A stretch of DNA of 64,000 bases from Defluviicoccus sp. Its GTDB lineage: Bacteria; Pseudomonadota; Alphaproteobacteria; MPNO01. The stretch covers positions 1,309 through 65,308 of the forward strand of contig JAJEHI010000086.1 in the NCBI GenBank assembly GCA_022823775.1, given 5' to 3'. Numbering within the stretch: the first letter of the stretch is position 1; each line of letters begins with the position of its first letter. The position numbers were made by a program, and so were the translations under genes. Shown here in pieces: positions 26,771 through 64,000 of the stretch. The notes under the pieces were generated by a model that saw only the letters and a list, made by a program, of their open reading frames with translations, searched no databases and was not told where the DNA came from.

Positions 26771-26847
<77 letters not shown>

Positions 26848-48219: not shown

Positions 48220-48309
48220 GGATGGGTGGCCGAGCGGTCGAAGGCACCGGTCTTGAAAACCGGCAGGCGTGCAAGCGTCTCGTGGGTTCGAATCCCACCC
48301 CATCCGCCA
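48220..48309 (+). tRNA. tRNA-Ser (anticodon UGA)
   Basis: GGATGGGTGGCCGAGCGGTCGAAGGCACCGGTCTTGAAAACCGGCAGGCGTGCAAGCGTCTCGTGGGTTCGAATCCCACCCCATCCGCCA has a 7-bp acceptor stem, an anticodon stem CCGGT/ACCGG with loop CTTGAAA, a long variable arm and an encoded CCA. Confidence 0.9.
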
Positions 48310-48680: not shown

Positions 48681-50027
48681 TTAGCGACGCCGGTCGATGA
48701 AACGCGGGGCTTTCACGCTGGCCTCGAACTCGCGGGCCAGCAGGCCGGGTTCGAGGATGACGATGTCGGGCGAGAGCTCGAAGGTCTCCTTGGTGCGCCT
48801 CTCCAGGTCCTCGCGCAGCGTGTCGGGGTCGGCGCCGCGGCGCGGCTCGACGGAAACCCGGAGGCGTTCGAGACCCGACGCGTCGCCGATCAGTTCGAGC
48901 TTGAAGTCGTTCACCGAGCGGTGCCCGAACATCATGTCCTCGAATTCCTGGTGGTTGACGTTGACACCGCGCAGCTTGAAGAAGCCCGCCGTGCGGTGGG
49001 CGTGGCGCATCGTGGGGAAGACCGAGAACGCCCCGTCGTCGCCCCCGGCGGGGTTCATGATCACGATGTCGCCCGAATCCCAGCGCAGGAACGGCGCCCC
49101 GTTGTTGCCGAACAGGGAGGTGCAAACCAGATGGCCGGGCTCGCCGTCCGGCACCGGCTTGCCGGTATCGGGGTCGAGCACCTCGAATATGGCGAGGTCG
49201 GCCCAGATCCTGAACCCCTGGCGGGACGGTCCCTCCGCGGCCAGCATGCTGATCTCGGTCATCCCGAAACAGTCGAAGACCCGGGCTCCCCAGTCGCGTT
49301 CGAGCTTTTCCCGCTTGGCCGCCGAAAGCGCCTCGGCGGAGCACAGCATGGTGGAGACCGAGCCTTCAGCAAGGTCCACGCCCTCCGAGTTGGCCAGGTT
49401 GGCGAGGTGCAGGCCGTAGCTCGACATGCCCAGCCAGACGGTGGGCTTGAGCGAGGAAATCAGGGCGAGCTGCTGGACCGACGGCAGCGACGCGCCGGAG
49501 CCCGCCCATACCGCGCCCATCCCCACGATCTGCGCCGCGCGCGCCCACATGTGGCCGACCGGATGGACCCCGAGCGGCGTCGAGATATGCGCCCTGTGGT
49601 TCGCCCCGTCTTCGATCCCCGCGGCCGCGAAGGTGCGGGTGAAACCGACCATGTTGAAGAGGATGTCCTCGAAAGTCTTCGGGTAGAACAACGGCTTTCC
49701 GGTGCTCCCGCCCGAGCGCCAGTACTCGCAGATCTCCTGACCGTCGAGCGTGCAGAAATCCTCGTAAAACCGCTCGTCCGACATCGCCCGAAGCTCGTCC
49801 TTGGTCAGGATCGGGATCTTCGACCACTCCTCGGGGTCGTCGAGCTTGCCGACGTCGATCCCCTCGAGGCGCGGGCGCCAGAACGGCGATCTGCGGGCGC
49901 GCTCGACGGCGATGCGCTTGCGTCTGCTCTGGATGCCTTCGATCTCTTCCGGGTTCTCCGGAATGCAGAGCGGCAAACCCGCGTAGATGTCCGGACGGCC
50001 CCGGGCCAGGCTCTCCAGCGCGCTCAT
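48681..50027 (-). CDS. Phenylacetate-CoA ligase family (PaaK/coenzyme F390 synthetase-like) adenylate-forming enzyme
   Basis: 448 aa. The AMP-binding core is present (YWRSGGSTGKPLFYP, GMTE) and the PaaK-like C-terminal domain. Confidence 0.8.
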   Translation of the reverse strand: MSALESLARGRPDIYAGLPLCIPENPEEIEGIQSRRKRIAVERARRSPFWRPRLEGIDVGKLDDPEEWSKIPILTKDELRAMSDERFYEDFCTLDGQEICEYWRSGGSTGKPLFYPKTFEDILFNMVGFTRTFAAAGIEDGANHRAHISTPLGVHPVGHMWARAAQIVGMGAVWAGSGASLPSVQQLALISSLKPTVWLGMSSYGLHLANLANSEGVDLAEGSVSTMLCSAEALSAAKREKLERDWGARVFDCFGMTEISMLAAEGPSRQGFRIWADLAIFEVLDPDTGKPVPDGEPGHLVCTSLFGNNGAPFLRWDSGDIVIMNPAGGDDGAFSVFPTMRHAHRTAGFFKLRGVNVNHQEFEDMMFGHRSVNDFKLELIGDASGLERLRVSVEPRRGADPDTLREDLERRTKETFELSPDIVILEPGLLAREFEASVKAPRFIDRRR

Positions 50028-51034
50028 TCCCCTGAATCGCTCCCGAGATAGCCGAGCGCGCCGATCCAGCGCTCCTGGGCGGCATAAGAGTCGGGGAGCG
50101 CCTCCTTCGCCTCCGCGTCGGCCATTGCGGCGAGGCGCCCGGCCTTTTCCGGGGTCGCCTCCGGTATCTCATCGAGGCTGTCCCCGATCATCCGCGCGTA
50201 GTCGTTGCCCACCGGACACACGTCCTGGCAGCGGCGGCAACCGCTGATCACCCCGGCACCGCGCAAAATGCTCTGCCACAGGTTGAAGCTGGTCTCGGAA
50301 CGGATCATGTCGAGCCTGGCGGCATCGTCCGGCGCTTCCAGGATGTCGCCAAGGTGATCCGCGAGCTGCGAGAAACCGTGCGGCGACCGGTAGCTGTCGC
50401 AGGCGGGCCAGTCGCGGTCCCAGTGTCCCACCACGTCTCCCGGGCAGGCGGTCAAGCAGCGGCCGCATTCCGGGCCGAGGCAAAGCGCCTCCTCCCGCCG
50501 GCCATCGGTTTCGCAATCGACCGAACACATCACCGCGGTGATCAGGACCCGGGGGCCGAACTCGGGGGTGATAAGCTGCAGATTCAGGCCCAGCGTGCCG
50601 AGCCCGGCCTCGACCGCCGCATGGGTGAGCGACAGCACCGTGGTCATGTGCTGGTTGCGGTCGCCGCGATAGAGCCACGGATCGGCATGGGTCGGCGGGA
50701 CGATGATCGTGGGATAGCCGTTGTCCTCCAGCCAGAAGACGAGCTCGAGCGAGGTTTCCTCCAGCATCGTGAGGACGAGCTCGTCGTTGTAATATTTGTG
50801 CCGCTCGTCCCAGCGCGCGATCCGGGTGGTGCCGGCGGAGTAGCGTTTGGCGAGGACGATCACGCGGCCGCCGTCATGCTCGGTGATGTCCTTCGGGCGG
50901 CGCGGGTCGCGCGGATCGGGCGGGTGCGCGTCCATCACCGCGCCGTCGGCGATACCGACGAGGTCGGCGCCGAGCGCCCTCGCCTTCGCCTTTATCGTGT
51001 CCGCGTCGAGCGGAGTCTGGAAGACGCCGACCAT
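50024..51034 (-). CDS. QueG/RdhA-superfamily 4Fe-4S protein (epoxyqueuosine-reductase-like paralogue 1)
   Basis: N-terminal KARALGADLVGIAD, GLGTLGLN...PEFGPRV, and two Cys clusters (CLGPECGRCLTACPGD and CRRCQDVCPVGND). These parallel the QueG A(E/G)LGxxG...CxxCxxCxxxCP and CxxCQxVCP motifs. Confidence 0.6.
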   Translation of the reverse strand: MVGVFQTPLDADTIKAKARALGADLVGIADGAVMDAHPPDPRDPRRPKDITEHDGGRVIVLAKRYSAGTTRIARWDERHKYYNDELVLTMLEETSLELVFWLEDNGYPTIIVPPTHADPWLYRGDRNQHMTTVLSLTHAAVEAGLGTLGLNLQLITPEFGPRVLITAVMCSVDCETDGRREEALCLGPECGRCLTACPGDVVGHWDRDWPACDSYRSPHGFSQLADHLGDILEAPDDAARLDMIRSETSFNLWQSILRGAGVISGCRRCQDVCPVGNDYARMIGDSLDEIPEATPEKAGRLAAMADAEAKEALPDSYAAQERWIGALGYLGSDSGE

Positions 51035-52161: not shown

Positions 52162-53298
52162 ATGAGTTCCCCGCCAACCCGACCCGTGCCAGGATTCGAG
52201 ACAGGCGATATAGCCGCGGTGGACCGCGCGGCCGGCGATCTTCGCCGCGGTCTGCCGGTGATTCTTGCCGAACCCGGGGACACCGACGGCATCGTCGCGT
52301 TCGCGGCCGAATTCATCTCGGCATCGCGGCTCGACGCGCTGCGCCGGCTGGCGGGGCGGGAACCGGACCTGACGATTACCCATAACCGGGCCGCCACCCT
52401 GAAAATCCGTCTCTACACGCCGGACGTGATCAGGATTCCGGTGCCGGAGTGGCTCTCGATCGAGGGGTTGGCAAGCCTCGCGGATCCGGCGACCGACCTC
52501 GCCCAGCCCCTGCGCGGCCCGTTCGAGGCGCGGCGCGATCCGGTGCCGGCCGGCGTCGTCGCGGCGGTGCGGCTCGCCAAGATCGCGCGACTCCTGCCGG
52601 CGACGGTGACCGCGGAGGTAAGCGACCTCGCCGCCGCGCTCGGAACCGAAAAGGCGGACCTGCTCGGGGTCGGACCGTCCGCGGTCATGTCATACGATGT
52701 CGCCGCCTCGCACCGGCTGGAGCAGGTCACCGCGGCGAAAGTGCCGCTCGAGGGCGCCGAGGGAGCGCGCATTTTCGCCTTCCGCCCGCGGGACGGCGGG
52801 ACCGAGCACTTCGCCATCGCGATCAACGACCCTCCCCCGCCCGGCCCGGTGCTGGCCCGGCTCCATTCGGAGTGCTTCACCGGCGATCTGCTCGGGTCGC
52901 TCAAATGCGATTGCGGGCAACAGCTGCGCGGCGCCATCGAACAAATCTCGTCCGAAGGCGCCGGCATTCTCCTCTACCTCGCCCAGGAAGGCCGCGGCAT
53001 CGGGCTGATCAACAAGCTCCGGGCCTACGCCCTGCAGGACCTCGGCTTCGATACGGTGGAGGCGAACGAACGGCTGGGATTCGACGCGGACGAGCGGGTG
53101 TTCCTGCCCGCCGCCGAGATGCTGCGCCGGCTGGGCTATTCGTCGGTACGGCTGATGACCAACAACCCCGACAAGGTCGAGGCGCTCGCCCGCTTCGGAA
53201 TCGAGGTCGCCGAACGGGTGCCGCACAGCTTCCCTTCCAACGACCACAACGCCTTCTACCTGTCGACGAAGGCGGAGAAGAGCGGGCATCTGTTGTAG
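52162..53298 (+). CDS. ribA: GTP cyclohydrolase II with N-terminal extension
   Basis: C-terminal RibA domain with an intact zinc/catalytic region (ARLHSECFTGDLLGSLKCDCGQQL, RAYALQDLGFDTVEANERLG). Confidence 0.85.
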   Translation: MSSPPTRPVPGFETGDIAAVDRAAGDLRRGLPVILAEPGDTDGIVAFAAEFISASRLDALRRLAGREPDLTITHNRAATLKIRLYTPDVIRIPVPEWLSIEGLASLADPATDLAQPLRGPFEARRDPVPAGVVAAVRLAKIARLLPATVTAEVSDLAAALGTEKADLLGVGPSAVMSYDVAASHRLEQVTAAKVPLEGAEGARIFAFRPRDGGTEHFAIAINDPPPPGPVLARLHSECFTGDLLGSLKCDCGQQLRGAIEQISSEGAGILLYLAQEGRGIGLINKLRAYALQDLGFDTVEANERLGFDADERVFLPAAEMLRRLGYSSVRLMTNNPDKVEALARFGIEVAERVPHSFPSNDHNAFYLSTKAEKSGHLL

Positions 53299-53462
53299 CC
53301 GAGCGATCCTATCGACGAGATCGTCATCGCACGCTGAAAGAAACGCAACGAAATGGCACGGCCACGATTTGTCGCTCTGGACGGCCCGTGCCGGACGCGG
53401 TGCCGCCCCTGTGAGACGTCCATCCGCTTTGACATGCGACATAGGTCGTATTACGGTCGTCG

Positions 53463-53741
53463 ATGATACGAAAGTTCCGGAGTCGGGCACTGCGTCGGTT
53501 CATGGAGCGAGGCGACGAGCGGCGCGTCCACCCGGAGCACCGCGACACCGTGCGCGACATCCTGGTGCGTCTCAACGCGTGTGCGAACCCGGACGATATG
53601 GACTTGCCCGGCTTTCGGCTGCACCGCCTCAGGGGCGAGTATGCCGGATTTTGGGCGGTGACGGTCGGCGCCAACTGGCGGGTGATCTTCCGATTCGAGG
53701 ACGGCCACGCCACCGATGTCGACTATGTGGGCTACCACTAG
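53463..53741 (+). CDS. higB: HigB-type (RelE/ParE superfamily) toxin
   Basis: 92-aa product. [39 protein letters not shown]... matches the 'plasmid maintenance system killer' family. Immediately followed by higA. Confidence 0.75.
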
Positions 53742-53754
53742 GAAGGCAACGTTC

Positions 53755-54042
53755 ATGCTTATGCACGATCCGCCCCACCCCGGCGCCTTCATTCGGCGTC
53801 AATGCCTCCAACCCCTCGGGCTGACGGTCACCGACGCCGCGAAGGGGCTGGCGGTTTCGCGCAACACGCTCTCTCTGTTACTCAACGGCCACATTGGCAT
53901 ATCGCCCGAAATGGCGATCCGGCTCTCCGAAGCATTCGGCGGCAGCCCGGAAAGCTGGCTGACCCAGCAGATGCAGTACGATCTCTGGCACACGCGGCAC
54001 AACCGCGAGGCAGTCGAAATCCGCAAGTTCGCCGCTGCCTGA
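53755..54042 (+). CDS. higA: HigA-type HTH (XRE-family) antitoxin
   Basis: [78 protein letters not shown], the canonical HigA sequence. AGGAAGG RBS 8 nt upstream. Confidence 0.8.
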
Positions 54043-54079
54043 CAGGCGAACTTGCGGGAGTCTGCGGCGGTGACGTTCT

Positions 54080-54868
54080 TCAACGCCCCTTGAACGCGGG
54101 CGGGCGTTTTTCCATGAACGCGGTGCGCCCCTCTGTGTAGTCCTCGCTGGCAAAACAGGCGTCGACGAGTTCCTGGCACGCCGCCAGGTCTCGTTCGCCG
54201 TCCGGCTTCAGCACCTCGTTGACGATCAGCTTCATCCCCTTGACCGTCAACGGAGCGTTGGCGGCGACGGTTCGTGCGTACTCGGTCACGGTTTCGGCGA
54301 GCGTTCCGTCGGGCACGACGCGCTGGACGAGGCCGATCGCATAGGCCTCGTCGGCGGGGATCATGCGGGCGGAAAAGACGATGTCGCGCGCCGCCCCGGG
54401 GCCCACCGCATCGACCAGCCGCTTGAGCCCGCCGAACCCGTAGCCGAGGCCGAGCCTGGCCGCCGGCAGCGCGAAGCGGGACTTCTCCGAACAGAAGCGC
54501 AGATCGCAGCAAAGCGCGAGACCGAGCCCGCCGCCCACGCAGTAACCGTCGATCTCGGCGATGGTGGGTTTGGGAATCGTCGCCACCATCGCGTTGGCGG
54601 AAGCGACCTTCGCGTTGTAGTTCCGGATCCCCTCCTCCGACGACCGCTCGGACTCGAATTTCGAGATATCGGCGCCCGATACGAACGCCCGTCCGCCGGC
54701 GCCGCTCAGCACCACGACACGGACTTCAGGATTATCGGCGAACCCGCGCAGGATTTCTTCCGCGGCCTCCCACATTTCGAGCGAGACCGCGTTCCGGCGC
54801 TCCGGATTGTTGAAGATCATCCGGCCGATACCATCGTCGATCTGGGACAGCATCTTGTCGGTGGCCAT
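54080..54868 (-). CDS. Enoyl-CoA hydratase/isomerase (crotonase) family protein
   Basis: Oxyanion-hole motifs (FVSGADISKF and GYCVGGGLGLAL...D). 262 aa. Confidence 0.85.
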   Translation of the reverse strand: MATDKMLSQIDDGIGRMIFNNPERRNAVSLEMWEAAEEILRGFADNPEVRVVVLSGAGGRAFVSGADISKFESERSSEEGIRNYNAKVASANAMVATIPKPTIAEIDGYCVGGGLGLALCCDLRFCSEKSRFALPAARLGLGYGFGGLKRLVDAVGPGAARDIVFSARMIPADEAYAIGLVQRVVPDGTLAETVTEYARTVAANAPLTVKGMKLIVNEVLKPDGERDLAACQELVDACFASEDYTEGRTAFMEKRPPAFKGR

Positions 54869-54900
54869 GCGTGTCGTCCTTCGTTTGGGTGTGTTTGCGC

Positions 54901-56094
54901 TCAGATCACGCCGCGTTCGCGAAGCCGGGCGATCTCATCCTGGTCGACCCCGATCGAGGCCAGAATTTCCTCCGCGTGCTCGCCCGGCTCCGGCGCCGGC
55001 GACGCGATCCGGCTGGGCGTGCGGCTGAGCTGCATGGGCTGGCGCACCATCCGGGTGCGGCCGAACGGGCGCGTCTCGACCGGCTGGGCGATCTCCAGAT
55101 GCGCGAACTGGGGCTCGTCGAACATCTCGCGGATATCGTTGATCCGCCCCGCCGGCACCCCGGCCTCGTTGAACAGCGCGATCCAGCGGTCGCTCGTGTT
55201 CTTCCGCGTGATGTCCCCGATCAGCGCGTTGAGCGCCCGCCGGTTCTCCGACCGTTTTCGCCCGGTCTCGAAGCGCGGGTCCGCGAGCCACGCTTCGCGG
55301 TCGATCGCGGCGCAGAATCTCCGCCAGATCCGCTGCCCGGAAACGCCGATATTGATGTGGCCGTCGGCGGTCGGGTAGACGCTCGTCGGCATCGAGGTCG
55401 GGTGATCGTTGCCCGCCTGCCCCGGCACCTCGCCGCCGATCAGGTAGCGCGCGGCCTGGAAGTCGAGCATGAACGCCTGCGCCTCGATCAGCGAGGTCGC
55501 GACCCACTGCCCCTCGCCGGACCGCTCCCGCTCGTAGAGCGCAACGAAGATCCCGAGCGCGCAGAACAGGCCCGCGGTGAGGTCCGCGATGGGAATCCCG
55601 GCCCGCATCGGACCCCTTCCCGGCTCTCCGGTGATCGACATGAGCCCGGCCATGCCCTGGGCGATCTGGTCGAACCCGGGCCGGTCGGCGTCGGGCCCGT
55701 CCTGACCGAAGCCGGAGATGCTGCCGAGGACGATGCGGGGATTCACGGCCCGCAGTGCCTCGTAGCCGATACCGAGCCGGTCCTTGACGGCGGGACGGAA
55801 ATTCTCGACCACGACGTCCGCCTGCTCGACCAGCTTTAGGAACAGAGCGCGCCCCTCGTCCGCATTGAGATTGAGCGTTAGCGAGCGCTTGTTGCGGTTG
55901 AGGTTCTGGTAGTCCGCCGTCGCGCGCGCCGCGCCCACCGCCCCGTCGTCCGCGAAGGCGGCGGGCGTTTCGATCCTGATGACGTCAGCCCCCCAATCGG
56001 CCAGCTGCCGGACGCAGGTGGGGCCCGAGCGGACCCGCGTAAGGTCGAGCACGGTGATGTGCTTCAGCGCATCCGAAGCGGGGCGGTGCGGCAT
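54901..56094 (-). CDS. Family III CoA-transferase (CaiB/BaiF)
   Basis: VLDLTRVRSGPTCVRQLADWGADVIRIE... N-terminus and a conserved catalytic Asp region. 397 aa. Confidence 0.85.
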   Translation of the reverse strand: MPHRPASDALKHITVLDLTRVRSGPTCVRQLADWGADVIRIETPAAFADDGAVGAARATADYQNLNRNKRSLTLNLNADEGRALFLKLVEQADVVVENFRPAVKDRLGIGYEALRAVNPRIVLGSISGFGQDGPDADRPGFDQIAQGMAGLMSITGEPGRGPMRAGIPIADLTAGLFCALGIFVALYERERSGEGQWVATSLIEAQAFMLDFQAARYLIGGEVPGQAGNDHPTSMPTSVYPTADGHINIGVSGQRIWRRFCAAIDREAWLADPRFETGRKRSENRRALNALIGDITRKNTSDRWIALFNEAGVPAGRINDIREMFDEPQFAHLEIAQPVETRPFGRTRMVRQPMQLSRTPSRIASPAPEPGEHAEEILASIGVDQDEIARLRERGVI

Positions 56095-56143
56095 GGGCGG
56101 AGACCTCGCGAAAATCCTTCCGGCAGTCTATGGCGCGGGCGCG

Positions 56144-57043
56144 CTAGCCGCCATCGGCGCGTCCGCGATAGACCGAGAGGTAGATGCCCGCCCCGATCAG
56201 CGCCACGCCGACGGCGTGGAACCATGCGAAGACCTCGCCCAGAAACACGATCGCCATGACCACGGTGAAGGCCACGATCAGGTGGATGAAAATTCCCGCC
56301 AGCGACGGCCCGAGATGCCGGATCGAGTAATTCCAGAGATAGATCGCCGCGACCGAGGAAAATACGGCGAGACCTACGATCGCGGCGATCGACGGCAAAC
56401 CGAAAGTCATCGGCCGGTCGACGGCCCACTCGATCAGGTAGAACGGGATCAACAAAAGGGCGCCAAGAAAAAGCACCAGAAACAGCATCACGCGCTGGTC
56501 CAGCGAACGCGGAGCGAGCCTGAGATAGACCGCATAAAGCGCCCAGCTGATATAGGCGAACAGGACCATGATATCGCCGACGTTGAAATCGAGATTGAGG
56601 ATTGCCCGGGGATCGCCGCGCCCGATCAGCGCGAAAACGCCGAGCAGGGAAACGAGTACGCCGGCCAGCTGGTTGGCCGTCACCCGGTCGCGAAAGATCG
56701 CCCAGGCGGCGACGATGATGATCAGCGGCTCGAAGGAGTTCAGAACGCCGACGTTGATGGCGATGGTGTATTGGAGCGACAGGAACAGAACCGCGTTGCC
56801 GCCGACGATGAGAAGAAACGACAGCAGCAGGATGATCCAGAAATGGCGTCTGATGAGATGGATCTGCTGAATCATCGGGCGCCAGGCGAAGGGCAGGACG
56901 ATCAGCGCTCCGAGCATGGTACGCCAGAACGAAAGCCCGAGCGGCGGCACCTCCTCGCGCAAGCCCCGGACAACGACGGTGCTGCCGGCCCAACACAGCA
57001 TCGCCACCGTCACCGCCAGATAGGGCGAGGTCAGGAAGCGCAT
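56144..57043 (-). CDS. DMT-superfamily (EamA) transporter
   Basis: Ten predicted TM helices with two EamA repeats. Start set at the internal Met MRFLTSPYLAV. Confidence 0.7.
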   Translation of the reverse strand: MRFLTSPYLAVTVAMLCWAGSTVVVRGLREEVPPLGLSFWRTMLGALIVLPFAWRPMIQQIHLIRRHFWIILLLSFLLIVGGNAVLFLSLQYTIAINVGVLNSFEPLIIIVAAWAIFRDRVTANQLAGVLVSLLGVFALIGRGDPRAILNLDFNVGDIMVLFAYISWALYAVYLRLAPRSLDQRVMLFLVLFLGALLLIPFYLIEWAVDRPMTFGLPSIAAIVGLAVFSSVAAIYLWNYSIRHLGPSLAGIFIHLIVAFTVVMAIVFLGEVFAWFHAVGVALIGAGIYLSVYRGRADGG

Positions 57044-57239
57044 CGCCAGGCCGCGCTCGTCGGAACCGGCTCGAAGCGGATTGCCTGCCATCGAATTACC
57101 TTGTGTCGCGGAGTTCGGCGCGCGCGCCGCCGGGGCAACCTATGTTGCGAACCCACCGGCGACAAGCGCTCGCCGGGCTTGCCCCGTGGCCGCGCGGGGC
57201 GGAAACTGCCCGCCGGCAAACCGGGTCGGGAGATACGAA

Positions 57240-57644
57240 ATGGCGATCGAACGCGTTCAGTCCGAGAAGGTGTCGGAACCCCCGCCGGAGACATGGTCCA
57301 ACTGTCTCGTCGCGGACGATCGCGTCTTCATCGCCGGGATGACCGCTCGCGGCGCCGATTTCAAGCCGCTCTCCGACATGGACGAGTACGAGCAGGCCAG
57401 GGTTTGCCTGACCAAGATACGGCATCTGATCGAGGCGGCGGGCGGGTCGATGGCCGATATCGTCAGGGTCAATATTTTCGTCACCGACATACGGAACCGC
57501 GAAGAGGTGTGGCGCGCCCGGCGCGAGTTCTTCTCCGGCGATTTTCCGGTGTCCACGCTGGTCGAGGTGAGCGCGCTCGCGGCGCCGGAGATGAACGTGG
57601 AGATCGAGGCGGAAGGCGTGCTGGGCGCTTCGGCGCGCGGTTGA
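57240..57644 (+). CDS. RidA/YjgF-family reactive-intermediate deaminase-like protein
   Basis: 134 aa. Conserved C-terminal region (RVNIFVTDI...EVSALAAPEMNVEIEAEGVL). GGGAG RBS. Confidence 0.8.
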   Translation: MAIERVQSEKVSEPPPETWSNCLVADDRVFIAGMTARGADFKPLSDMDEYEQARVCLTKIRHLIEAAGGSMADIVRVNIFVTDIRNREEVWRARREFFSGDFPVSTLVEVSALAAPEMNVEIEAEGVLGASARG

Positions 57645-57674
57645 CCGCCCCGGACGACGCGGCGGCGCGCAACC

Positions 57675-59009
57675 TCAGCGCATCGGAGCCGCCGCCTCCT
57701 TGAGCGCCGCCAGCTCCTCTTCGGCCCGCCCGGTGTCGTCGAGCCCGGCCTTGCGGTCGATCGGAACGGCCTCCTTGTCATCCGCCGTCGGCAGCTTCCC
57801 GACCGGGTAGACCGCGACCCGTTCGTTGGCGCCCGAGACGTCGCGCCCGAGCGACAGGTCACGCTCGTTGGCGGCGGACGCCGCGACGATCCTGCCGTCC
57901 TCCTTCACGAGGTCGAGCCACCAGCGCTTGACCGGGTTGCGCTTGCCGTAGCCGAGCGCATCGTCGAGCCAGATCAGGAAACGGCGCGAGAACGGCAGCT
58001 TGATCGCCGCCCACATCGCGAGCCGGTGCGCCAGCAGCCCCTCCTTGTTCCACGGGCACATCTTCATGCAGCGCCCGCACGCCGAGCCCTTGAGGTTGGT
58101 CACCCGGTACTTGGTGCACTTCTCGACGTCGGGCTTCCAGATCTCGTAGCCGTTGTAGAGCAGCTTGTCGCCGAACGGGATGGCCTGGGCCGGGCACTCG
58201 CGCGCGCATTTGCGGCATTTGTCGCAGAAATCCTGGAGCCCGAAATCGATCGGCTTGTCGGGAACCAGCGGCAGGTCGGTGGTCACGACGGCGGTCTTGT
58301 GGCGCGGCCCGATGAAGGGGTTGAGGACGAGCTCGCCGATCCGGCTCATCTCGCCCAGCCCGGCAAGCAGCATCAGCGGAATCTGCATCACGTCGCCGTG
58401 GGCGTTGGAGTGCGCCTGGGCCGGGTAGCCGAGGCGGCGGATGTAATCGGCGACGATAGTGGCCGTGGTGGAGCCGTTGAGATATGCGCGATAGCTCTGC
58501 GCGCCGGACACCCAATCGTCGCCGGACGAGGCTTCGAACGTGTCCCAGCCCTGGTCGATCACGATGACGACCGCGAATTTGTGCCGGGTATCGATCGGCG
58601 TACCGTCGCTCTCGTGGGAGAACCATGCGTACTCGGGCACCTCGCACACCCCCACCATGTCGGCGTCGAGGAAATAGCAGAGCGATTTGACGTGTCTGGT
58701 CAGCTCTTCGGGGTCGTCAGGCAGCGGCGCCTTCTCGTCCGCCGGATCGCCCTTGTGGACGGGCACGTGCTTCCAGTGCAGGTGCCCGATCGCCGCGTTG
58801 AGCGGGTTCTTGGTGATGAAGCGCCGGATTTCCCTGGCGGGCTTGGGACCGAGATCGCCGTAGAAGGCACGGACGAAGAAGCCGGCGCGCTTGGGCACCT
58901 GCTTCACGTCGTCGGTGATCAGCGTCGTCGGACGATCGACGCGCCTGATCTTCTCCATCGGATAGCGGCCGAGATGCATCGGCCGCTTCTTGCGTGAAAG
59001 TATCCGCAC
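57675..59009 (-). CDS. Cytoplasmic reductive-dehalogenase-like (RdhA/QueG superfamily) cobalamin/4Fe-4S protein
   Basis: About 440 aa. No Tat signal. Two ferredoxin-type clusters (FCDKCRKCARECPAQAI and CGRCMKMCPWNKEG) preceded by AGLGEMSRIGELVLNPFIGPRHK, the RdhA/QueG core pattern. No rdhB anchor gene nearby. Confidence 0.55.
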   Translation of the reverse strand: MRILSRKKRPMHLGRYPMEKIRRVDRPTTLITDDVKQVPKRAGFFVRAFYGDLGPKPAREIRRFITKNPLNAAIGHLHWKHVPVHKGDPADEKAPLPDDPEELTRHVKSLCYFLDADMVGVCEVPEYAWFSHESDGTPIDTRHKFAVVIVIDQGWDTFEASSGDDWVSGAQSYRAYLNGSTTATIVADYIRRLGYPAQAHSNAHGDVMQIPLMLLAGLGEMSRIGELVLNPFIGPRHKTAVVTTDLPLVPDKPIDFGLQDFCDKCRKCARECPAQAIPFGDKLLYNGYEIWKPDVEKCTKYRVTNLKGSACGRCMKMCPWNKEGLLAHRLAMWAAIKLPFSRRFLIWLDDALGYGKRNPVKRWWLDLVKEDGRIVAASAANERDLSLGRDVSGANERVAVYPVGKLPTADDKEAVPIDRKAGLDDTGRAEEELAALKEAAAPMR

Positions 59010-59093
59010 GCCCGTATCCCCGCGCTGGACGATCCCGCCGACGCCCGGCCGGCGCGAGGACCGGCCGGCCGGGCGCGAACGAAGCGGACCCGG

Positions 59094-60158
59094 CTACTGG
59101 ATGCCGTAGAGCGCCTTGGTGTTGTGATAGAGGATCTTTTCCTTGACCTCCATCGAGTATTCGTTGTCGGCGAGGAAGTCCGGCACGTCCGCCGTCAAAT
59201 CCTCTTCCGTCGGTTCGTGCGGGAAGTCGGACGCGTAGATGATCCGGTCCGACCCCATCGCGTCGATGACGTATTTGAGGCTCTTCTCGCCCATCTCGCA
59301 GGACAGCCAGATGCTCTCCGTGTCGCGGATGATCTCCGAGGGCTTCTTCTTCAACTTCGGGCGGACGGGCGCGCCGAACACCGAATCGTATTCGTAGTCG
59401 AGCCGGTCCATCATGAAGGTGATCCAGGCGCAGCCGCCTTCCAGGAACGCGAACTTGAGATTGGGGAAGGTCTCGAAGACGCCGTTGAACATCATGTCGG
59501 TCATCTGGATCATCAGCGGGACCGGGTGTTCGAGGGTATGGACCTTGAGGAACGGCTTCAGGTTGTCGAGCCCGAAACCCCGGCTTACCGCGCCGTGGAA
59601 GGCGATGGTCATGCCCTGGCGCTCGGCCTCCTCGTAGATCGGCCAATAGCACTCGTCCCCGAAATACTTGCCGTTGACGGTCACCGTCGGGAGCAGCATC
59701 GCACCGAAATTGGTCCGCTCGGTGGCGCAGCGGGCCACTTCCTTCTTCGCGGCCTCGACGTCGTTGTAGGGGATCAGCCCGACGCCCCAGAGCCGGCCGT
59801 CCTTCTTGGTGTAGTGCTCTTCCAGCCAGTTGTTGTAGGCGATCGCGGTGGCGGTCTGGAACTCCTCGCTCTGCATCAGCCCGTAGGCCAGCCCGGACGT
59901 CGGGTAGAGAACGCTGCCCTCGAGCCCGATCTTGTCGAGGATCTCGGCCCAGATATCGGCGTCGGTCGACCAGTACCGCGCGCCTTCGTCGCCCTCCGCG
60001 ACGATCGAGCTCCGCGACCAGCCGTCGAGGCTCGGAAAGATGGTCATGCCTTCGAGGCGGCGGTTGCCCGTCCACTTGCCTTCATAGTGCTGCGCGAGCT
60101 CGCGGTCCGGCTCGAGGACGTGGCCGTCGCCATCGAAGACGGGAATGTCATGTTGCAT
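59094..60158 (-). CDS. Amidohydrolase-2 (ACMSD/LigW-type) metal-dependent decarboxylase family protein
   Basis: N-terminal FDGDGHVLEP (HxH-type metal ligands in the D/HxH context), an internal AFHG, and a C-terminal DFPHE motif typical of PF04909. Confidence 0.75.
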   Translation of the reverse strand: MQHDIPVFDGDGHVLEPDRELAQHYEGKWTGNRRLEGMTIFPSLDGWSRSSIVAEGDEGARYWSTDADIWAEILDKIGLEGSVLYPTSGLAYGLMQSEEFQTATAIAYNNWLEEHYTKKDGRLWGVGLIPYNDVEAAKKEVARCATERTNFGAMLLPTVTVNGKYFGDECYWPIYEEAERQGMTIAFHGAVSRGFGLDNLKPFLKVHTLEHPVPLMIQMTDMMFNGVFETFPNLKFAFLEGGCAWITFMMDRLDYEYDSVFGAPVRPKLKKKPSEIIRDTESIWLSCEMGEKSLKYVIDAMGSDRIIYASDFPHEPTEEDLTADVPDFLADNEYSMEVKEKILYHNTKALYGIQ

Positions 60159-60351
60159 GGCCTGACGCTCCGTTCGGGTTTGGGTGCGTCAAGAGTGAAG
60201 CGGAACGCACGGCGGCTCAAGCCCCGATCGTCCGGGCGAGCAAGAGCGCGCCCCGGATGCCGGGTCGTTGGGGTCTGGACGGTCGACACCTCATGTCCTA
60301 TCTGTTGGGCGGCCCGTTCGGCCGACCTCCTCGCACTTCAAGGGGCCGGAA

Positions 60352-61506
60352 ATGAGCTCAGCCACCCCGACGATCCGATCGATCGCCTCCGGCGCCATCC
60401 TGGCCGCGGCGATGTGCCTCGCCGCGACGGCTTCGGGCGCGATGGAAACGCCGGCGAAGCAGGCCTACATCGTCGACCTGGAGACCGGGACGGTGCTGCT
60501 GGAGAAGGACAGCACCACCCCCACCCCGCCCGCGTCGTTGAGCAAGCTGATGACGCTCTACATGGTTTTCGAGCAGCTCAAGCAGGGAAAACTCTCCCTC
60601 GACGACAAGTTCGTCGTCAGCCGCAAGGCCTGGAAGATGGGCGGCTCCAAGATGTTCGTCGAAGTCGACAAGCGGGTGCGCGTCGAAGACCTGGTGCGGG
60701 GGATCGTCGTCCAGTCGGGCAACGACGCCTGCATCGTGGTCGCCGAAGCGATGTCGGGCTCGGAAAGCGCGTTCGCCGACGCGATGAACCGCAGGGCGGC
60801 GGAAATCGGTCTTACCGACACCCACCTCGTCAATTCCACCGGTTGGCCGGCCGACAGCCACCTCATGAGCCCGCGCGACCTCGCCGTTCTCGCGCAGCGC
60901 ATCATCGAGGAATTTCCGGAATATTATCCCTATTTTGCGGAGAAATCCTTCCGCTACAACAAGATCAAACAGGGGAACCGCAACCCCCTGCTCTACCGCG
61001 ACACCGGGGCGGACGGCCTGAAGACCGGCCATACGCGGGCGTCGGGCTACGGGCTCGTGGCGTCGGCCGTGCGCAACGGCCGGCGCGTGATGATGGTGCT
61101 CACCGGACTGCCGAGCGCCAGGACCCGGTCGTTCGAGGCGCGCCGCCTGCTGGACTGGGCCTATCAGTCATTCAAGAACTACGACCTCTTCCAGAGCGGC
61201 GCCGTCGTGGAGAATGCGGACGTCTGGCTCGGCGACGACGAGACGGTGCCGCTGGTTGCGGAGCGCGACGTCAAGATCTCCCTGCCCCGCGCCTCGCGCC
61301 GGGGGCTCAAGGCGAAAGTCGTCTACGAGGGTCCGGTTCCGGCGCCGATCGCCAAGGGAACGAAAATCGCGAGCCTCGTGATCACGGCCCCCGATTTCGA
61401 TACGATCGAAGTGCCTCTCGTCGCCGGCGCCGATGTCGCACGGGTCGGCATCTTCGGCCGGCTGGGCGCGGCGATTTCCTACATGGTCTGGGGCGCCGAT
61501 CGCTAA
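60352..61506 (+). CDS. D-alanyl-D-alanine carboxypeptidase (PBP5/6-type, serine peptidase S11)
   Basis: Signal peptide. SxxK (ASLSKLMT), SGN (QSGND) and KTG (KTGHT) motifs. ATG with an AAGGGG RBS. An upstream TTG alternative exists at 60268. Confidence 0.85.
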
Positions 61507-61513
61507 CAGGCAT

Positions 61514-61596
61514 GTCGGCGTTAGTCGACTGAAACCGCTCGCTTTTCCAAGGCTCGCGGACCGGTTGTGCCGCGGCAATCCGACTAACGCGACTGT
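61514..61596 (+). promoter_or_regulatory. Inverted repeat / candidate operator region upstream of bufA
   Basis: cggcgttagtcgact ... atccgactaacgcgac form a 10-12-bp inverted repeat separated by about 55 nt. A GTGAT-N7-ATCAC palindrome follows (61607-61623). They lie between the dacC stop and the AAGGAG RBS of bufA. Confidence 0.3.
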
Positions 61597-61708
61597 GAAT
61601 TGTTGTGATGGTGGGTATCACTTAGGGTCATGTCGTGGCTATGCCCGAAGTTACGGGGCGCCATGTCGTTTTTCCATACACCTGTCCCATCGACAAGGAG
61701 ACGAACCG

Positions 61709-62008
61709 ATGACCAAGAGCCCAGTGTTTCTCGCGGCCGCGCTTCTGGCCGCCGCCAATTTCGCCGCCTCCGACGCGGCTCAAGCGGCCGACAAGCAGGA
61801 GAAGTGCTACGGCGTCTCGCTCGCCGGCAAGAACGACTGCAAGGCGGGTCCGGGAACGAGTTGCCAGGGCAGCTCGACCGTGGACTACCAGGGGAATGCC
61901 TGGAAGCTGGTCCCCGCCGGATCGTGCGAGGGTATGTCCTTCAAGACCAAGGACGGCCGGACGGTGTCAGGCAGCCTGAAGGAGCTGAAGCGCGACATTC
62001 CGAGCTGA
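61709..62008 (+). CDS. bufA: DUF2282-family secreted Cys-containing peptide (bufferin-type RiPP precursor, BufA-like)
   Basis: 99-aa product with a Sec signal peptide ([26 protein letters not shown]). The core has four Cys in the conserved spacing ([46 protein letters not shown]). AAGGAG RBS. Confidence 0.75.
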
Positions 62009-62063
62009 TCGGATAACGTCCGGGACGCCGTCCGGGCCTTCGACCCGGCGGCGACCGGACGAT

Positions 62064-62957
62064 TTGTCGACGAATCCGGCAATGCCGGCACTTTATCCTT
62101 TCACGCCGTTTACCTCGCGGATGCCCGCGCGGGCCGGCGTCGGGTTCAAGGGCGAGCATGCGGAGACGGTCTGCGGGGACCGACCGGACGTCGGCTGGTT
62201 CGAGGTCCATCCGGAAAACTACATGGTTGCCGGCGGGCCGAGGCTCGCGGTGCTCGAGGAGCTGCGCGGCAATTACCCGCTGTCGCTGCACGGCGTAGGC
62301 CTGTCGCTCGGCGGTGCCGAACGACTCGACTCCGACCATTTGAGAGCCTTCCGCGAGCTGGCGGACCGCTTCGAGCCGGGGCTGATTTCCGAACACATCG
62401 CCTGGTCCGCGCATGGCGGGATGTGGTTCGCGGACCTGCTCCCTCCGAGCCTTAGCCGGGCCGGCCTCGACCGCATTTGCGACAATATCGACGAGACGCA
62501 GGAAGCGCTCGGCCGTGCGATCCTGATCGAGAACCCGGCCAACTACCTCGTCTTGCCGGACCGCGACATGGACGAGGTCGCTTTCATCGTCGAAACGGCG
62601 AGGCGGACCGGTTGCGGCCTGCTGGTCGACGTCAACAACATCTACGTCAGTGCCGAAAATGTCGGCATCGACGCGGACGCCTATATCGATGCCGTCCCTG
62701 CCGACCTCATCGGGGAAATCCATCTTGCCGGCTTCACGGTCGACGAGCACGCCGGCGAGCGTCTGCTGATCGACAGCCACGGCGCGGCGGTCGACGCCGC
62801 GGTCTGGCGGCTCTACGACAGGCTGATCGCGCGAGTCGGGCCGCGCCCGACACTGGTCGAGTGGGACAAGGACATTCCCGACTGGGACGTGCTGCATGCC
62901 GAAGCGGTCGAGGCGGAGAGCCGCCTGGCCCGCCTTGCCGAGCCGGTGCCGGCATGA
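62064..62957 (+). CDS. bufB: DUF692-family multinuclear non-heme iron oxidase (MNIO, BufB-like) RiPP maturase
   Basis: 297-aa TIM-barrel-type DUF692 product (VGFKGEH...HPENYM...HGVGLSLGG...ISEHIAWS...LIEN). Immediately downstream of the DUF2282 precursor. Confidence 0.8.
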   Translation: MSTNPAMPALYPFTPFTSRMPARAGVGFKGEHAETVCGDRPDVGWFEVHPENYMVAGGPRLAVLEELRGNYPLSLHGVGLSLGGAERLDSDHLRAFRELADRFEPGLISEHIAWSAHGGMWFADLLPPSLSRAGLDRICDNIDETQEALGRAILIENPANYLVLPDRDMDEVAFIVETARRTGCGLLVDVNNIYVSAENVGIDADAYIDAVPADLIGEIHLAGFTVDEHAGERLLIDSHGAAVDAAVWRLYDRLIARVGPRPTLVEWDKDIPDWDVLHAEAVEAESRLARLAEPVPA

Positions 62958-62970
62958 GGAGGCGCCTGGG

Positions 62971-63750
62971 ATGAGCGCGCCTCTGGCTGCCCGGCAGGCG
63001 GATTTCGCCGCGGCCCTGAGAGACCCCTCGCCGGATGCGGTGCCGGACGGTTTCTCCGAAGCCGCCGCCCGGCGTTTCCGCGTATACCGCAACAATGTGC
63101 GCGTCGCGCTGATAGAGGCGCTTGCAGCCGCCTACCCGGCGGTGTCGAGGCTGGTCGGAGAGCCCTTCTTCCACCGCATGGCCGGCGTCTACGCGGCGGA
63201 GGAACCCTCGCGCGAGCGCACGCTCAATCTCTACGGCGAAAACTTCGCGGATTTCGTCGCCGGCTTCGCTCCGGCTGGCGAGTTGCCCTATCTCGCCGAC
63301 ATCGCCCGGCTCGAACGCGCGGTGCTCGAAGCGCGCCATGCGGCCGATGCCCCGGTGCTGGACCCGGCCGCGGCGGCCGCTCTCGGTTCCAGGCTCGCTT
63401 CCGCGTGGCTGATACCGCACCCGGCGACCCGGCTGGTGCGCTCCGAATATCCGGTTGCCGAGATCTGGCACGCCAACACGGCCGAGGCGCCGACGCCGGA
63501 CGACCTGGTCCTGACCGCGGGAGCTGCCGGCGCGCTGGTGTCGCGGCCCGCGCTGTCCGTTTCGGTGCAAGCTCTGGCGCCGGGCCGATGCGCATTCGCG
63601 GAAACCCTGCTGGACGGCGGCGATCCGGCCGCCGCGCATGCGGCCGCGGCCTCGCGTGAAGAAGATTTCGACGTTATACCGGCATTCAGGGACCTGCTTG
63701 CCGCGGGCGCCTTCGCGGGCGTCGCGAACGAACCGGGCGAAGGAGGGTAG
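62971..63750 (+). CDS. bufC: DUF2063-family MNIO partner protein (BufC-like)
   Basis: Start at MSAPLAARQADFAAALRD, which has a GAGGAGG RBS. DUF2063 N-terminal domain pattern (FRVYRNNVRVALIEALAAAYP). Overlaps the bufB stop region. Confidence 0.7.
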   Translation: MSAPLAARQADFAAALRDPSPDAVPDGFSEAAARRFRVYRNNVRVALIEALAAAYPAVSRLVGEPFFHRMAGVYAAEEPSRERTLNLYGENFADFVAGFAPAGELPYLADIARLERAVLEARHAADAPVLDPAAAAALGSRLASAWLIPHPATRLVRSEYPVAEIWHANTAEAPTPDDLVLTAGAAGALVSRPALSVSVQALAPGRCAFAETLLDGGDPAAAHAAAASREEDFDVIPAFRDLLAAGAFAGVANEPGEGG

Positions 63751-63752
63751 CG

Positions 63753-64000
63753 ATGGGTGGCCTGTCGAACATGGTGCGGCAACTGGTCGATCTCGGCCAC
63801 CGTATCGCGGAGCCCGTGACGGGCGGGCTGGGGCCGGTCGCGCTGCTCGCGCTACGGCTGCCCGTCGCCATCGTCTTCTGGCGCTCCGGCCGCGCCAAGG
63901 TGGAGGGGTGGAACATCTTTTCCGTCGGCGACTCGCAGTATTTCCTGTTCCGCGAGGAGTTCGGCATGCCGATGCCGGAACTGACCGCGCATGTGACCGC
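63753..64000 (+). CDS. bufD: DoxX-family membrane protein (BufD-like), 3' end beyond the window
   Basis: ATG with an AGGAGGG RBS. The N-terminus MGGLSNMVRQLVDLGHRIAEPVTGGLGPVALLALRLPVAIVFWRSGRAKV is typical of DoxX. Truncated by the window end. Confidence 0.6.
   Translation, partial: MGGLSNMVRQLVDLGHRIAEPVTGGLGPVALLALRLPVAIVFWRSGRAKVEGWNIFSVGDSQYFLFREEFGMPMPELTAHVT

Follow-up and report, generated by a model that had tools for sequence, protein, structure and literature searches.

A probable Buf1-type bufferin operon in a Defluviicoccus-like alphaproteobacterium

The last 2.3 kb of a 64,000-nucleotide stretch of a Defluviicoccus sp. genome (contig JAJEHI010000086.1 of assembly GCA_022823775.1; this whole stretch is called the window below) are filled by four co-directional open reading frames (ORFs) on the plus strand, with all reading frames intact. 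A preliminary description, made from the sequence alone, had read these genes as the operon of a bufferin, a peptide that is made by ribosomes and modified after translation (RiPP) and whose cysteines are altered by a multinuclear non-heme iron oxidase (MNIO). This raises the questions of whether the locus does encode a bufferin, to which type it would belong, and what its product might do for the cell. The bufferin family was described in 2024 (PMC11626156) and surveyed in 2025, and a study from 2026 mapped 21,424 precursors of the class. Its Buf1 type is the commonest type of MNIO gene cluster and the largest MNIO-associated RiPP group.

We conclude that positions 61709-64000 are very probably a Buf1-type bufferin (captophorin) operon, bufABCD, on the chromosome of a Defluviicoccus-like alphaproteobacterium. 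It is an ordinary, canonical Buf1 cluster of a kind for which Pfam and NCBIfam already carry the names BufA1 and BufB, and it has little importance beyond annotation and opens no long-standing question. Its value lies in a testable prediction of the product and in the closeness of the cluster to a copper island. New here are only three small extras: a dyad conserved upstream of bufA, a hairpin in the leader that resembles a terminator, and a conserved hairpin after bufA. They hint at regulation of a non-SigF/NrsF kind.

Gene content and order of the operon

The four ORFs lie where the preliminary description had placed them, and Pfam profile searches of all four products scored above cut-off for the families it had named (DUF2282, DUF692, DUF2063, and DoxX). 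The first gene, bufA (61709-62008), encodes 99 aa from an ATG start, with an AAGGAG ribosome-binding site (RBS) 8 nt upstream. It is followed by bufB (62064-62957), which encodes an MNIO of the BufB subfamily with 297 aa when read from a TTG start and for which the ATG at 62082 is an alternative start, and by bufC (62971-63750; 259 aa, GGAGG RBS), which encodes the DUF2063 (HvfC_N) partner of the MNIO. The last gene, bufD (63753-64000; AGGAGG RBS), encodes a DoxX membrane protein and is cut by the window end after the first 82 of its 152 codons. Gaps of 55, 13, and 2 nt separate the genes from bufA through bufD.

Strong RBSs had been claimed for all four genes. Clear AGGAG-type sites are present at bufA, bufC, and bufD, but not at bufB, which has an ambiguous start and no strong RBS. 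The public gene calls of near-identical contigs use ATGs equivalent to 62082 or 62121, and an exact-sequence look-up of the 297-aa BufB gave no record, the public gene calls beginning at a downstream ATG. Since the third possible start, the ATG at 62121, is missing in more distant relatives, a start at 62064 or 62082 is likely. We also considered a longer ORF (61433-62008, 191 aa) as an extended bufA but rejected it on three grounds: where the RBS lies, the conservation of the start, and the signal peptide.

The gene order is that of a bufferin operon. Among 80 loci fetched through BufB alone, bufA adjoined bufB in every one, and the order A-B-C(-D) was kept in 79, across orders of Alphaproteobacteria. 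Together with the matches to the BufA1 and BufB models and the cysteine spacing of the precursor, both given below, this conservation upholds the original reading of the locus, and the profile E-values exclude a chance match. A tblastn search of the 64-kb window found no second copy of bufA, bufB, bufC, or bufD.

The BufA precursor

BufA matched Pfam PF10048 (DUF2282, now named BufA1) with E=7e-24 and 84 bits against a cut-off of 22.4, and its 99 aa fall within the 80- to 120-aa range of Buf1 precursors (range from PMC11626156). It has at least 7,996 relatives in a large protein collection, some of them named 'BufA1 family periplasmic bufferin-type metallophore'. Its four cysteines, C33, C44, C52, and C73 (CysI to CysIV; plus-strand codons 61805-61807, 61838-61840, 61862-61864, and 61925-61927), were invariant in all 120 of the best BufA homologues, each of which has exactly four cysteines, and a spacing of 11/8/21 residues recurred in 76 of the 78 BufA proteins encoded next to BufB relatives.

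This is also the spacing of BufA1 of Caulobacter vibrioides, so that the pattern of four conserved cysteines proposed for the precursor is borne out. Using residue numbers from the text of PMC11626156 and the Caulobacterales orthologues in our fetched loci, we found that Caulobacter BufA1 (cysteines at core positions 12/23/31/52) shares with the peptide described here both the identical 11/8/21 spacing and the sequences D-C-K at CysII and S-C-x at CysIII. The two peptides differ at their ends. The core here has 73 aa rather than 68. Its N-terminal part is shorter than in Caulobacterales BufA, with CysI at core position 7 instead of 12; the tail after CysIV comprises 26 residues rather than 16 and has a conserved DGR..GSL..L.RD.P motif.

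The N-terminus of BufA has K3, a hydrophobic stretch from V6 to A20, and a cleavage site at A24-Q25-A26/A27 (AQA|AD), whose A24 and A26 recur in 90% or more of the homologues; neither a twin-arginine (RR) motif nor a lipobox occurs in the signal region. By this rule-based reading, the signal peptide appears to be of the standard Sec type and to have a site for signal peptidase I, in agreement with what had been proposed. The signal peptide would be encoded at 61709-61786 on the plus strand (residues 1-26), and the 73-aa core peptide with the stop codon at 61787-62008. The predicted core has a monoisotopic mass of 7625.67 Da, and the computed mass of the modified core is ~7615.6 Da, two thiooxazoles and a disulfide together accounting for -10 Da. 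This shift from 7625.67 to ~7615.6 Da for a 73-residue core is the testable product prediction.

An AlphaFold2 model of BufA built with 54 homologues was of low confidence (predicted local distance difference test score [pLDDT] of 44), probably because the alignment, in which all sequences are at least 60% identical, is too shallow, and a search of the PDB with the BufA sequence gave no match. In one relative (L009, 9631-9928), bufA is apparently frameshifted, with two tblastn pieces in different frames and the cysteine pattern missing; this copy is a pseudogene or else reflects an error of the long-read assembly.

The BufB enzyme and the BufC and BufD proteins

BufB scored 318 bits against Pfam MbnB_TglH_ChrH and 355.9 against the NCBIfam equivalog MNIO_BufB, whose cut-off is 310, while the NCBIfam equivalogs HvfB, ApyH, MbnB, and ChrH all remained under their cut-offs. 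By PDB sequence search, it is related to 3BWW (E=5e-31), TglH, and MbnB. Pairwise alignments to MbnB chains map its iron site: H111, E156, D189, N192, and H220 align with His91, Glu135, Asp165, Asn168, and His194 of VcMbnB, and D237, H239, E266, and D268 align with Asp209, His211, Glu238, and the general base Asp240. A further residue, H76, lies within an LHG.xLSLGG motif common to 3BWW. None of these ten residues (H76, H111, E156, D189, N192, H220, D237, H239, E266, and D268) varies across 81 BufB sequences. To judge by these alignments, BufB keeps an intact multinuclear iron site and the general base. The assignment of the DUF692 product as an MNIO is thus well founded, with the BufB equivalog cut-off passed and the iron ligands and general-base Asp kept.

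BufC matched Pfam DUF2063 (now HvfC_N) with 87.5 bits over residues 8-96. Its AlphaFold2 model has a pLDDT of 92.8, and the best PDB fold matches of the model were TglI (8HCI_A and 8HI7_A, from the TglHI holoenzyme) and NGO1945 (3DEE), each with a probability of 1.00. PMC13097082 cites the last of these as the structure of a DUF2063 partner protein. The profile match and the fold match together support the proposal that bufC encodes a DUF2063 partner. Searching the PDB by sequence gave no match for BufC, and a 24-sequence BufC profile also missed 3DEE. In Buf1 clusters, the DUF2063 partner is expected to have a C-terminal domain related to RiPP recognition elements (RREs). A match to the stand-alone RRE TbiB1 was not significant (E=5), and the predicted link of BufC to RREs thus goes through the fold of partner proteins.

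The truncated, 82-aa BufD scored 25.6 bits against Pfam DoxX, for which the cut-off is 23.6, and the full-length DoxX orthologues in three relatives (L001, L003, and L007) scored 68-71 bits. The 82 residues are identical in L081, a contig of the same species that is introduced below and in which the gene encodes 152 aa. The gene is therefore, as had been described, a doxX gene cut by the window end. In Buf1 clusters, a doxX gene in last place is frequent without being obligatory.

Proposed pathway

Gene content and order, family membership, catalytic residues, cysteine pattern, and signal-peptide features are direct observations at this locus. To propose what the genes do together, we drew on Caulobacter Buf1, in which BufB and BufC oxidize CysII and CysIII to 5-thiooxazoles (-4.03 Da each) and CysI and CysIV form a disulfide; the peptide is exported by Sec and cleaved by signal peptidase, and the folded product binds periplasmic copper (PMC11626156). 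BufB and BufC are both required for the modification and together suffice for it, and neither modification nor phenotype depends on DoxX (PMC11626156). The 5-thiooxazole is now supported by published work across the DUF2063-dependent MNIOs, a group named captophorins.

By analogy, BufA would be made as a 99-aa pre-peptide. In the cytoplasm, it would meet the iron enzyme BufB together with BufC, with BufC recruiting the precursor, and the two proteins would use O2 for a four-electron oxidation of each of CysII (C44) and CysIII (C52), yielding 5-thiooxazole rings. Sec would then export the peptide, signal peptidase I would cleave it after A26, and in the periplasm a C33-C73 disulfide would form. 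The folded 73-residue product may bind copper via its thiooxazoles and so buffer excess metal. BufD would be an accessory membrane protein, dispensable for modification.

The preliminary description had spoken of 5-thiooxazoles formed from the precursor cysteines, a shift of -4 Da per cysteine, copper chelation, and a former name as 'gig' operons. This account of the family agrees with PMC11626156, and the conversion may be expected by homology for two of the cysteines here (CysII and CysIII), but not for all four.

Relation to known systems

The closest described counterpart is buf1ABCD of Caulobacter vibrioides (CCNA_03363-03366; PMC11626156), which agrees in its four Pfam families and in their order and whose Caulobacterales orthologues in our fetched loci have BufB proteins ~55-60% identical to the one here. 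The gig operon of Cupriavidus metallidurans, like its homologues in Legionella and elsewhere, also has the DUF2282/DUF692/DUF2063/DoxX architecture (PMC11626156). That operon was named for metal induction measured there; next to the present one, no extracytoplasmic function (ECF) sigma factor was found.

Other bufferins and captophorins share parts of this plan. Bufferin 2 (BufA2, Buf_6/12Cys) likewise combines an MNIO and a DUF2063 protein with a Sec-exported, cysteine-rich precursor that acquires thiooxazoles (PMC11626156), but the precursor here has 4 cysteines rather than 6 or 12 and scores 24.7 on the BufA2 equivalog, below the cut-off of 60. According to the published survey, Buf2 clusters are without sigma/anti-sigma (NrsF) genes, and Caulobacter buf2 is also without doxX. 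Oxazolin of Haemophilus influenzae (HvfABC(X)), fontiphorin, and gonophorin are 5-thiooxazole, copper-binding products of an MNIO and a DUF2063 protein, often with DoxX. This EGKCG-repeat group of captophorins is also the source of the structures 3BWW and 3DEE; among solved structures, 3BWW is nearest to BufB in sequence and 3DEE nearest to BufC in fold. Unlike those systems, however, BufA has no EGKCG repeats, and the proteins encoded here fall below the cut-offs of the corresponding models (HvfB, 198 against 360; HvfC, 49 against 142; HvfX, 62 against 80). On these sequence features, the operon is not a Buf2 or EGKCG oxazolin cluster, nor, by its MbnB score given below, a methanobactin cluster.

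Relatives and the DNA beyond the window end

The nearest BufB relatives, in a collection of one-genome-per-species contigs, come from metagenome-assembled genomes (MAGs) of Rhodospirillales and Defluviicoccus and are 87-92% identical. Three of these loci (L003, L005, and L007) are syntenic with the window over 10 kb upstream, at 84-89% nucleotide identity. A still closer contig, L081 (GCA_022820985.1, JAJEEL010000122.1), was found through its 98%-identical BufC. It is 98.9% identical to positions 52971-64000 of the window, without gaps, and differs by 1 residue in BufA, 3 in BufB, 6 in BufC, and 0 in BufD. We used it as a same-species extension of the window.

In L081, bufD ends after 152 codons, and a gene for a thiamine pyrophosphate (TPP)-dependent enzyme follows 17 nt later. 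Next, on the opposite strand, lies a gene whose product scores as the CueR equivalog (160.2 bits; cut-off, 147.4). Genes for a cytochrome c and CopC and the start of a gene for a CopD-like membrane protein run divergently from it. This cluster of CueR with cytochrome c, CopC, and CopD-like genes lies 1.9 kb downstream of bufD, and we refer to it as a copper island (L081 13126-14689, ~2.1-3.7 kb past the window end). The region between the CueR and cytochrome c genes holds TTGACT-N19-TAGATT, a promoter typical of the MerR type, together with the dyad TTTCCAGT-T-ACTGGAAA. Over the 3.9 kb downstream of bufD in L081, neither a second precursor gene nor a sigma/anti-sigma pair was found.

We rejected the TPP gene as a member of the cluster, given that relatives carry other genes at this place and that the 17-nt gap exceeds the 10-bp criterion of the published survey. 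In L003, L005, and L007, a TAXI-TRAP transporter pair follows doxX, and in L001, a flavin adenine dinucleotide (FAD) oxidase gene is found on the opposite strand. In L001 and L002, both Rhodospirillales MAGs, the buf operon and its upstream block are ~91% identical at the nucleotide level to positions 61569-64000 of the window, while both flanks are unrelated, which suggests that the operon was relocated or transferred as a unit.

The host is an uncultured bacterium of the Rhodospirillales, and its Defluviicoccus-like group includes glycogen-accumulating organisms of wastewater. The copper load of wastewater could make a bufferin system useful to such bacteria.

Upstream region and regulation

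The genes upstream of the operon encode a PBP5-type DD-carboxypeptidase and catabolic functions. Caulobacter Buf1 differs in having sigF/nrsF genes next to the operon and a sigmaF promoter motif. A search of 61507-61708 that allowed up to 2 mismatches did not find the Caulobacter sigmaF motif GTAACC-N16-CGAA (PMC3511200), and no ECF sigma or NrsF gene upstream of the operon was found among those window ORFs that were scanned. A strict scan of 61300-64000 for sigma-70 promoters and intrinsic terminators also found nothing.

We did find a plus-strand block (61585-61630) that the closest relatives share. It is kept also in L001 and L002, despite their unrelated sequence farther upstream, and contains a candidate promoter, TTGTTG-N17-TAGGGT. 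Within the spacer of this putative promoter lies the dyad TGTGAT-N7-ATCAC (61604-61621, plus strand), a candidate operator. The dyad has a single exact match in the window, the same site occurs upstream of bufA in L001-L007, and it is unlike the Caulobacter sigmaF motif. The block is followed on the plus strand by a hairpin (61632-61667) and a run of five T (61669-61673). In a consensus fold of 8 close relatives, the hairpin has 11 pairs with little covariation, 2 of them being changed on both sides, and the T-rich tail is kept. The folding z-score of the whole leader is only -0.9, and Rfam has no match in it; we therefore put forward a terminator-like hairpin in the bufA leader only weakly.

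A second, GC-rich hairpin lies on the plus strand between bufA and bufB (62017-62061). The 91-nt stretch around it (61995-62085) folds at -46 kcal/mol with a z-score of -3.5. Across 15 relatives, the hairpin has 13 pairs, 3 of them with compensatory changes, and 95% of cells are paired, compared with 24-52% when the partners are slid. Stable structures 3' of bufA occur in 36 of the 80 loci and are absent from Caulobacterales-type loci, in which the bufA-bufB gap is short, unlike the 55-nt gap with its conserved hairpin here. The hairpin is a candidate attenuator or mRNA stabilizer, and it is plausible that it keeps the precursor in excess over the enzymes.

Outside the Caulobacterales, bufferin operons may have other modes of regulation and may contain a conserved hairpin 3' of the gene for the precursor. 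It is conceivable, although we think it doubtful, that this lineage has swapped SigF/NrsF control for the dyad, the leader hairpin, and the post-bufA hairpin, which would make up a new metal-responsive circuit of attenuation or processing. If such a circuit existed, it would determine both operon induction and how much precursor is made relative to the enzymes.

Alternative roles and chemistries

Several points weigh against a copper-buffering bufferin operon. The Sec signal peptide was judged by rule, and the small-protein fold described for Caulobacter BufA1 was not reproduced in the BufA model, with its pLDDT of 44. The chemistry, export, copper binding, and physiological role are all argued from homology. 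With sigmaF motif and sigF/nrsF genes not found at the locus, copper induction is putative; the upstream dyad differs from the CueR box of L081, and our analysis of the bufA promoter brought out no copper-responsive element. Finally, the metal itself could be another one, considering that the first inducers described for the Caulobacter operon CC3254-3257 were chromate and cadmium, acting via sigmaF (PMC3511200).

This last point leads to the alternative that survives best, namely that the same machinery and type of product serve another role, such as the handling of Cd, Cr, Au, or Hg or protection from oxidative or chlorine stress. Operons of the family were originally named for gold induction (PMC11626156), and its authors proposed roles with other metals or stresses on the grounds of MerC fusions and doxX genes. 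In addition, a copper-responsive operator is apparently lacking at the bufA promoter. However, all characterized products of the bufferin class bind Cu, the same species has the CueR/CopC/CopD-like cluster at a distance of 1.9 kb, and the copper-binding Buf1 of Caulobacter shares the residues beside the cysteines. We therefore consider another role unlikely and retain copper buffering as the predicted function.

A second alternative concerns the chemistry: BufB might make oxazolone/thioamide pairs, as in methanobactin, which are isomeric with the 5-thiooxazole and of equal mass, so that mass alone cannot separate the two. MbnB-type MNIOs do make oxazolone/thioamide, and the products oxazolin and MovA were first assigned in this way. 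The MbnABC and TglHI (pearlin) systems resemble the present one in having a TIM-barrel MNIO with the same iron ligands that acts on a cysteine of a ribosomal peptide, and the TglI partner has the fold of BufC, being its top structural match. Yet the chemistry of those systems is either oxazolone/thioamide formation or excision of the Cys beta-carbon, and their precursors are short, leader-dependent, and without a Sec signal, as opposed to a 99-aa DUF2282 protein. BufB scores 49 bits on MbnB, for which the cut-off is 325, in contrast to its 355.9 as BufB, and its partner is a DUF2063 protein and not MbnC. On the product side, nuclear magnetic resonance on Buf1 supports the 5-thiooxazole (PMC11626156); alkylation-assisted heteronuclear multiple bond correlation spectra, absorbance at 305 nm, and the re-assignment of oxazolin favor it for DUF2063-dependent MNIOs; and two later preprints back the assignment. 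An oxazolone/thioamide product is thus very improbable here, and 5-thiooxazoles are the expected modification.

Hardly any credence is left for a locus that is silent or decaying, or for BufA as an unmodified periplasmic cysteine-rich protein, as might be read from the ambiguous bufB start without a strong RBS, the apparently frameshifted bufA of L009, and the DUF2282 genes that lie without an MNIO gene in the published survey, since all four frames here are intact with only 0-6 residue changes per protein relative to the 98.9%-identical strain, the catalytic residues are all invariant, and the gene order is conserved across alphaproteobacterial orders.

Other features in the window

Elsewhere in the window, positions 53463-54042 hold what looks like a type II toxin-antitoxin pair, in which the gene for a HigB-like toxin (Pfam, 60 bits) precedes one for an HTH_3 antitoxin. 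An Rfam search gave no match near the apparent riboflavin-biosynthesis genes at ~35.5-40.6 kb, whose identities were read from translations only. Across the whole window, the sole Rfam matches at the gathering score were two tRNA genes (26774-26847 on the minus strand and 48220-48306 on the plus strand). Two minus-strand genes (57675-59009 and 50024-51034) encode proteins with 4Fe-4S dicluster motifs and no other Pfam assignment; they lie amid CoA-transferase, enoyl-CoA hydratase, amidohydrolase_2, and AMP-binding genes, with which they may form a catabolic cluster.

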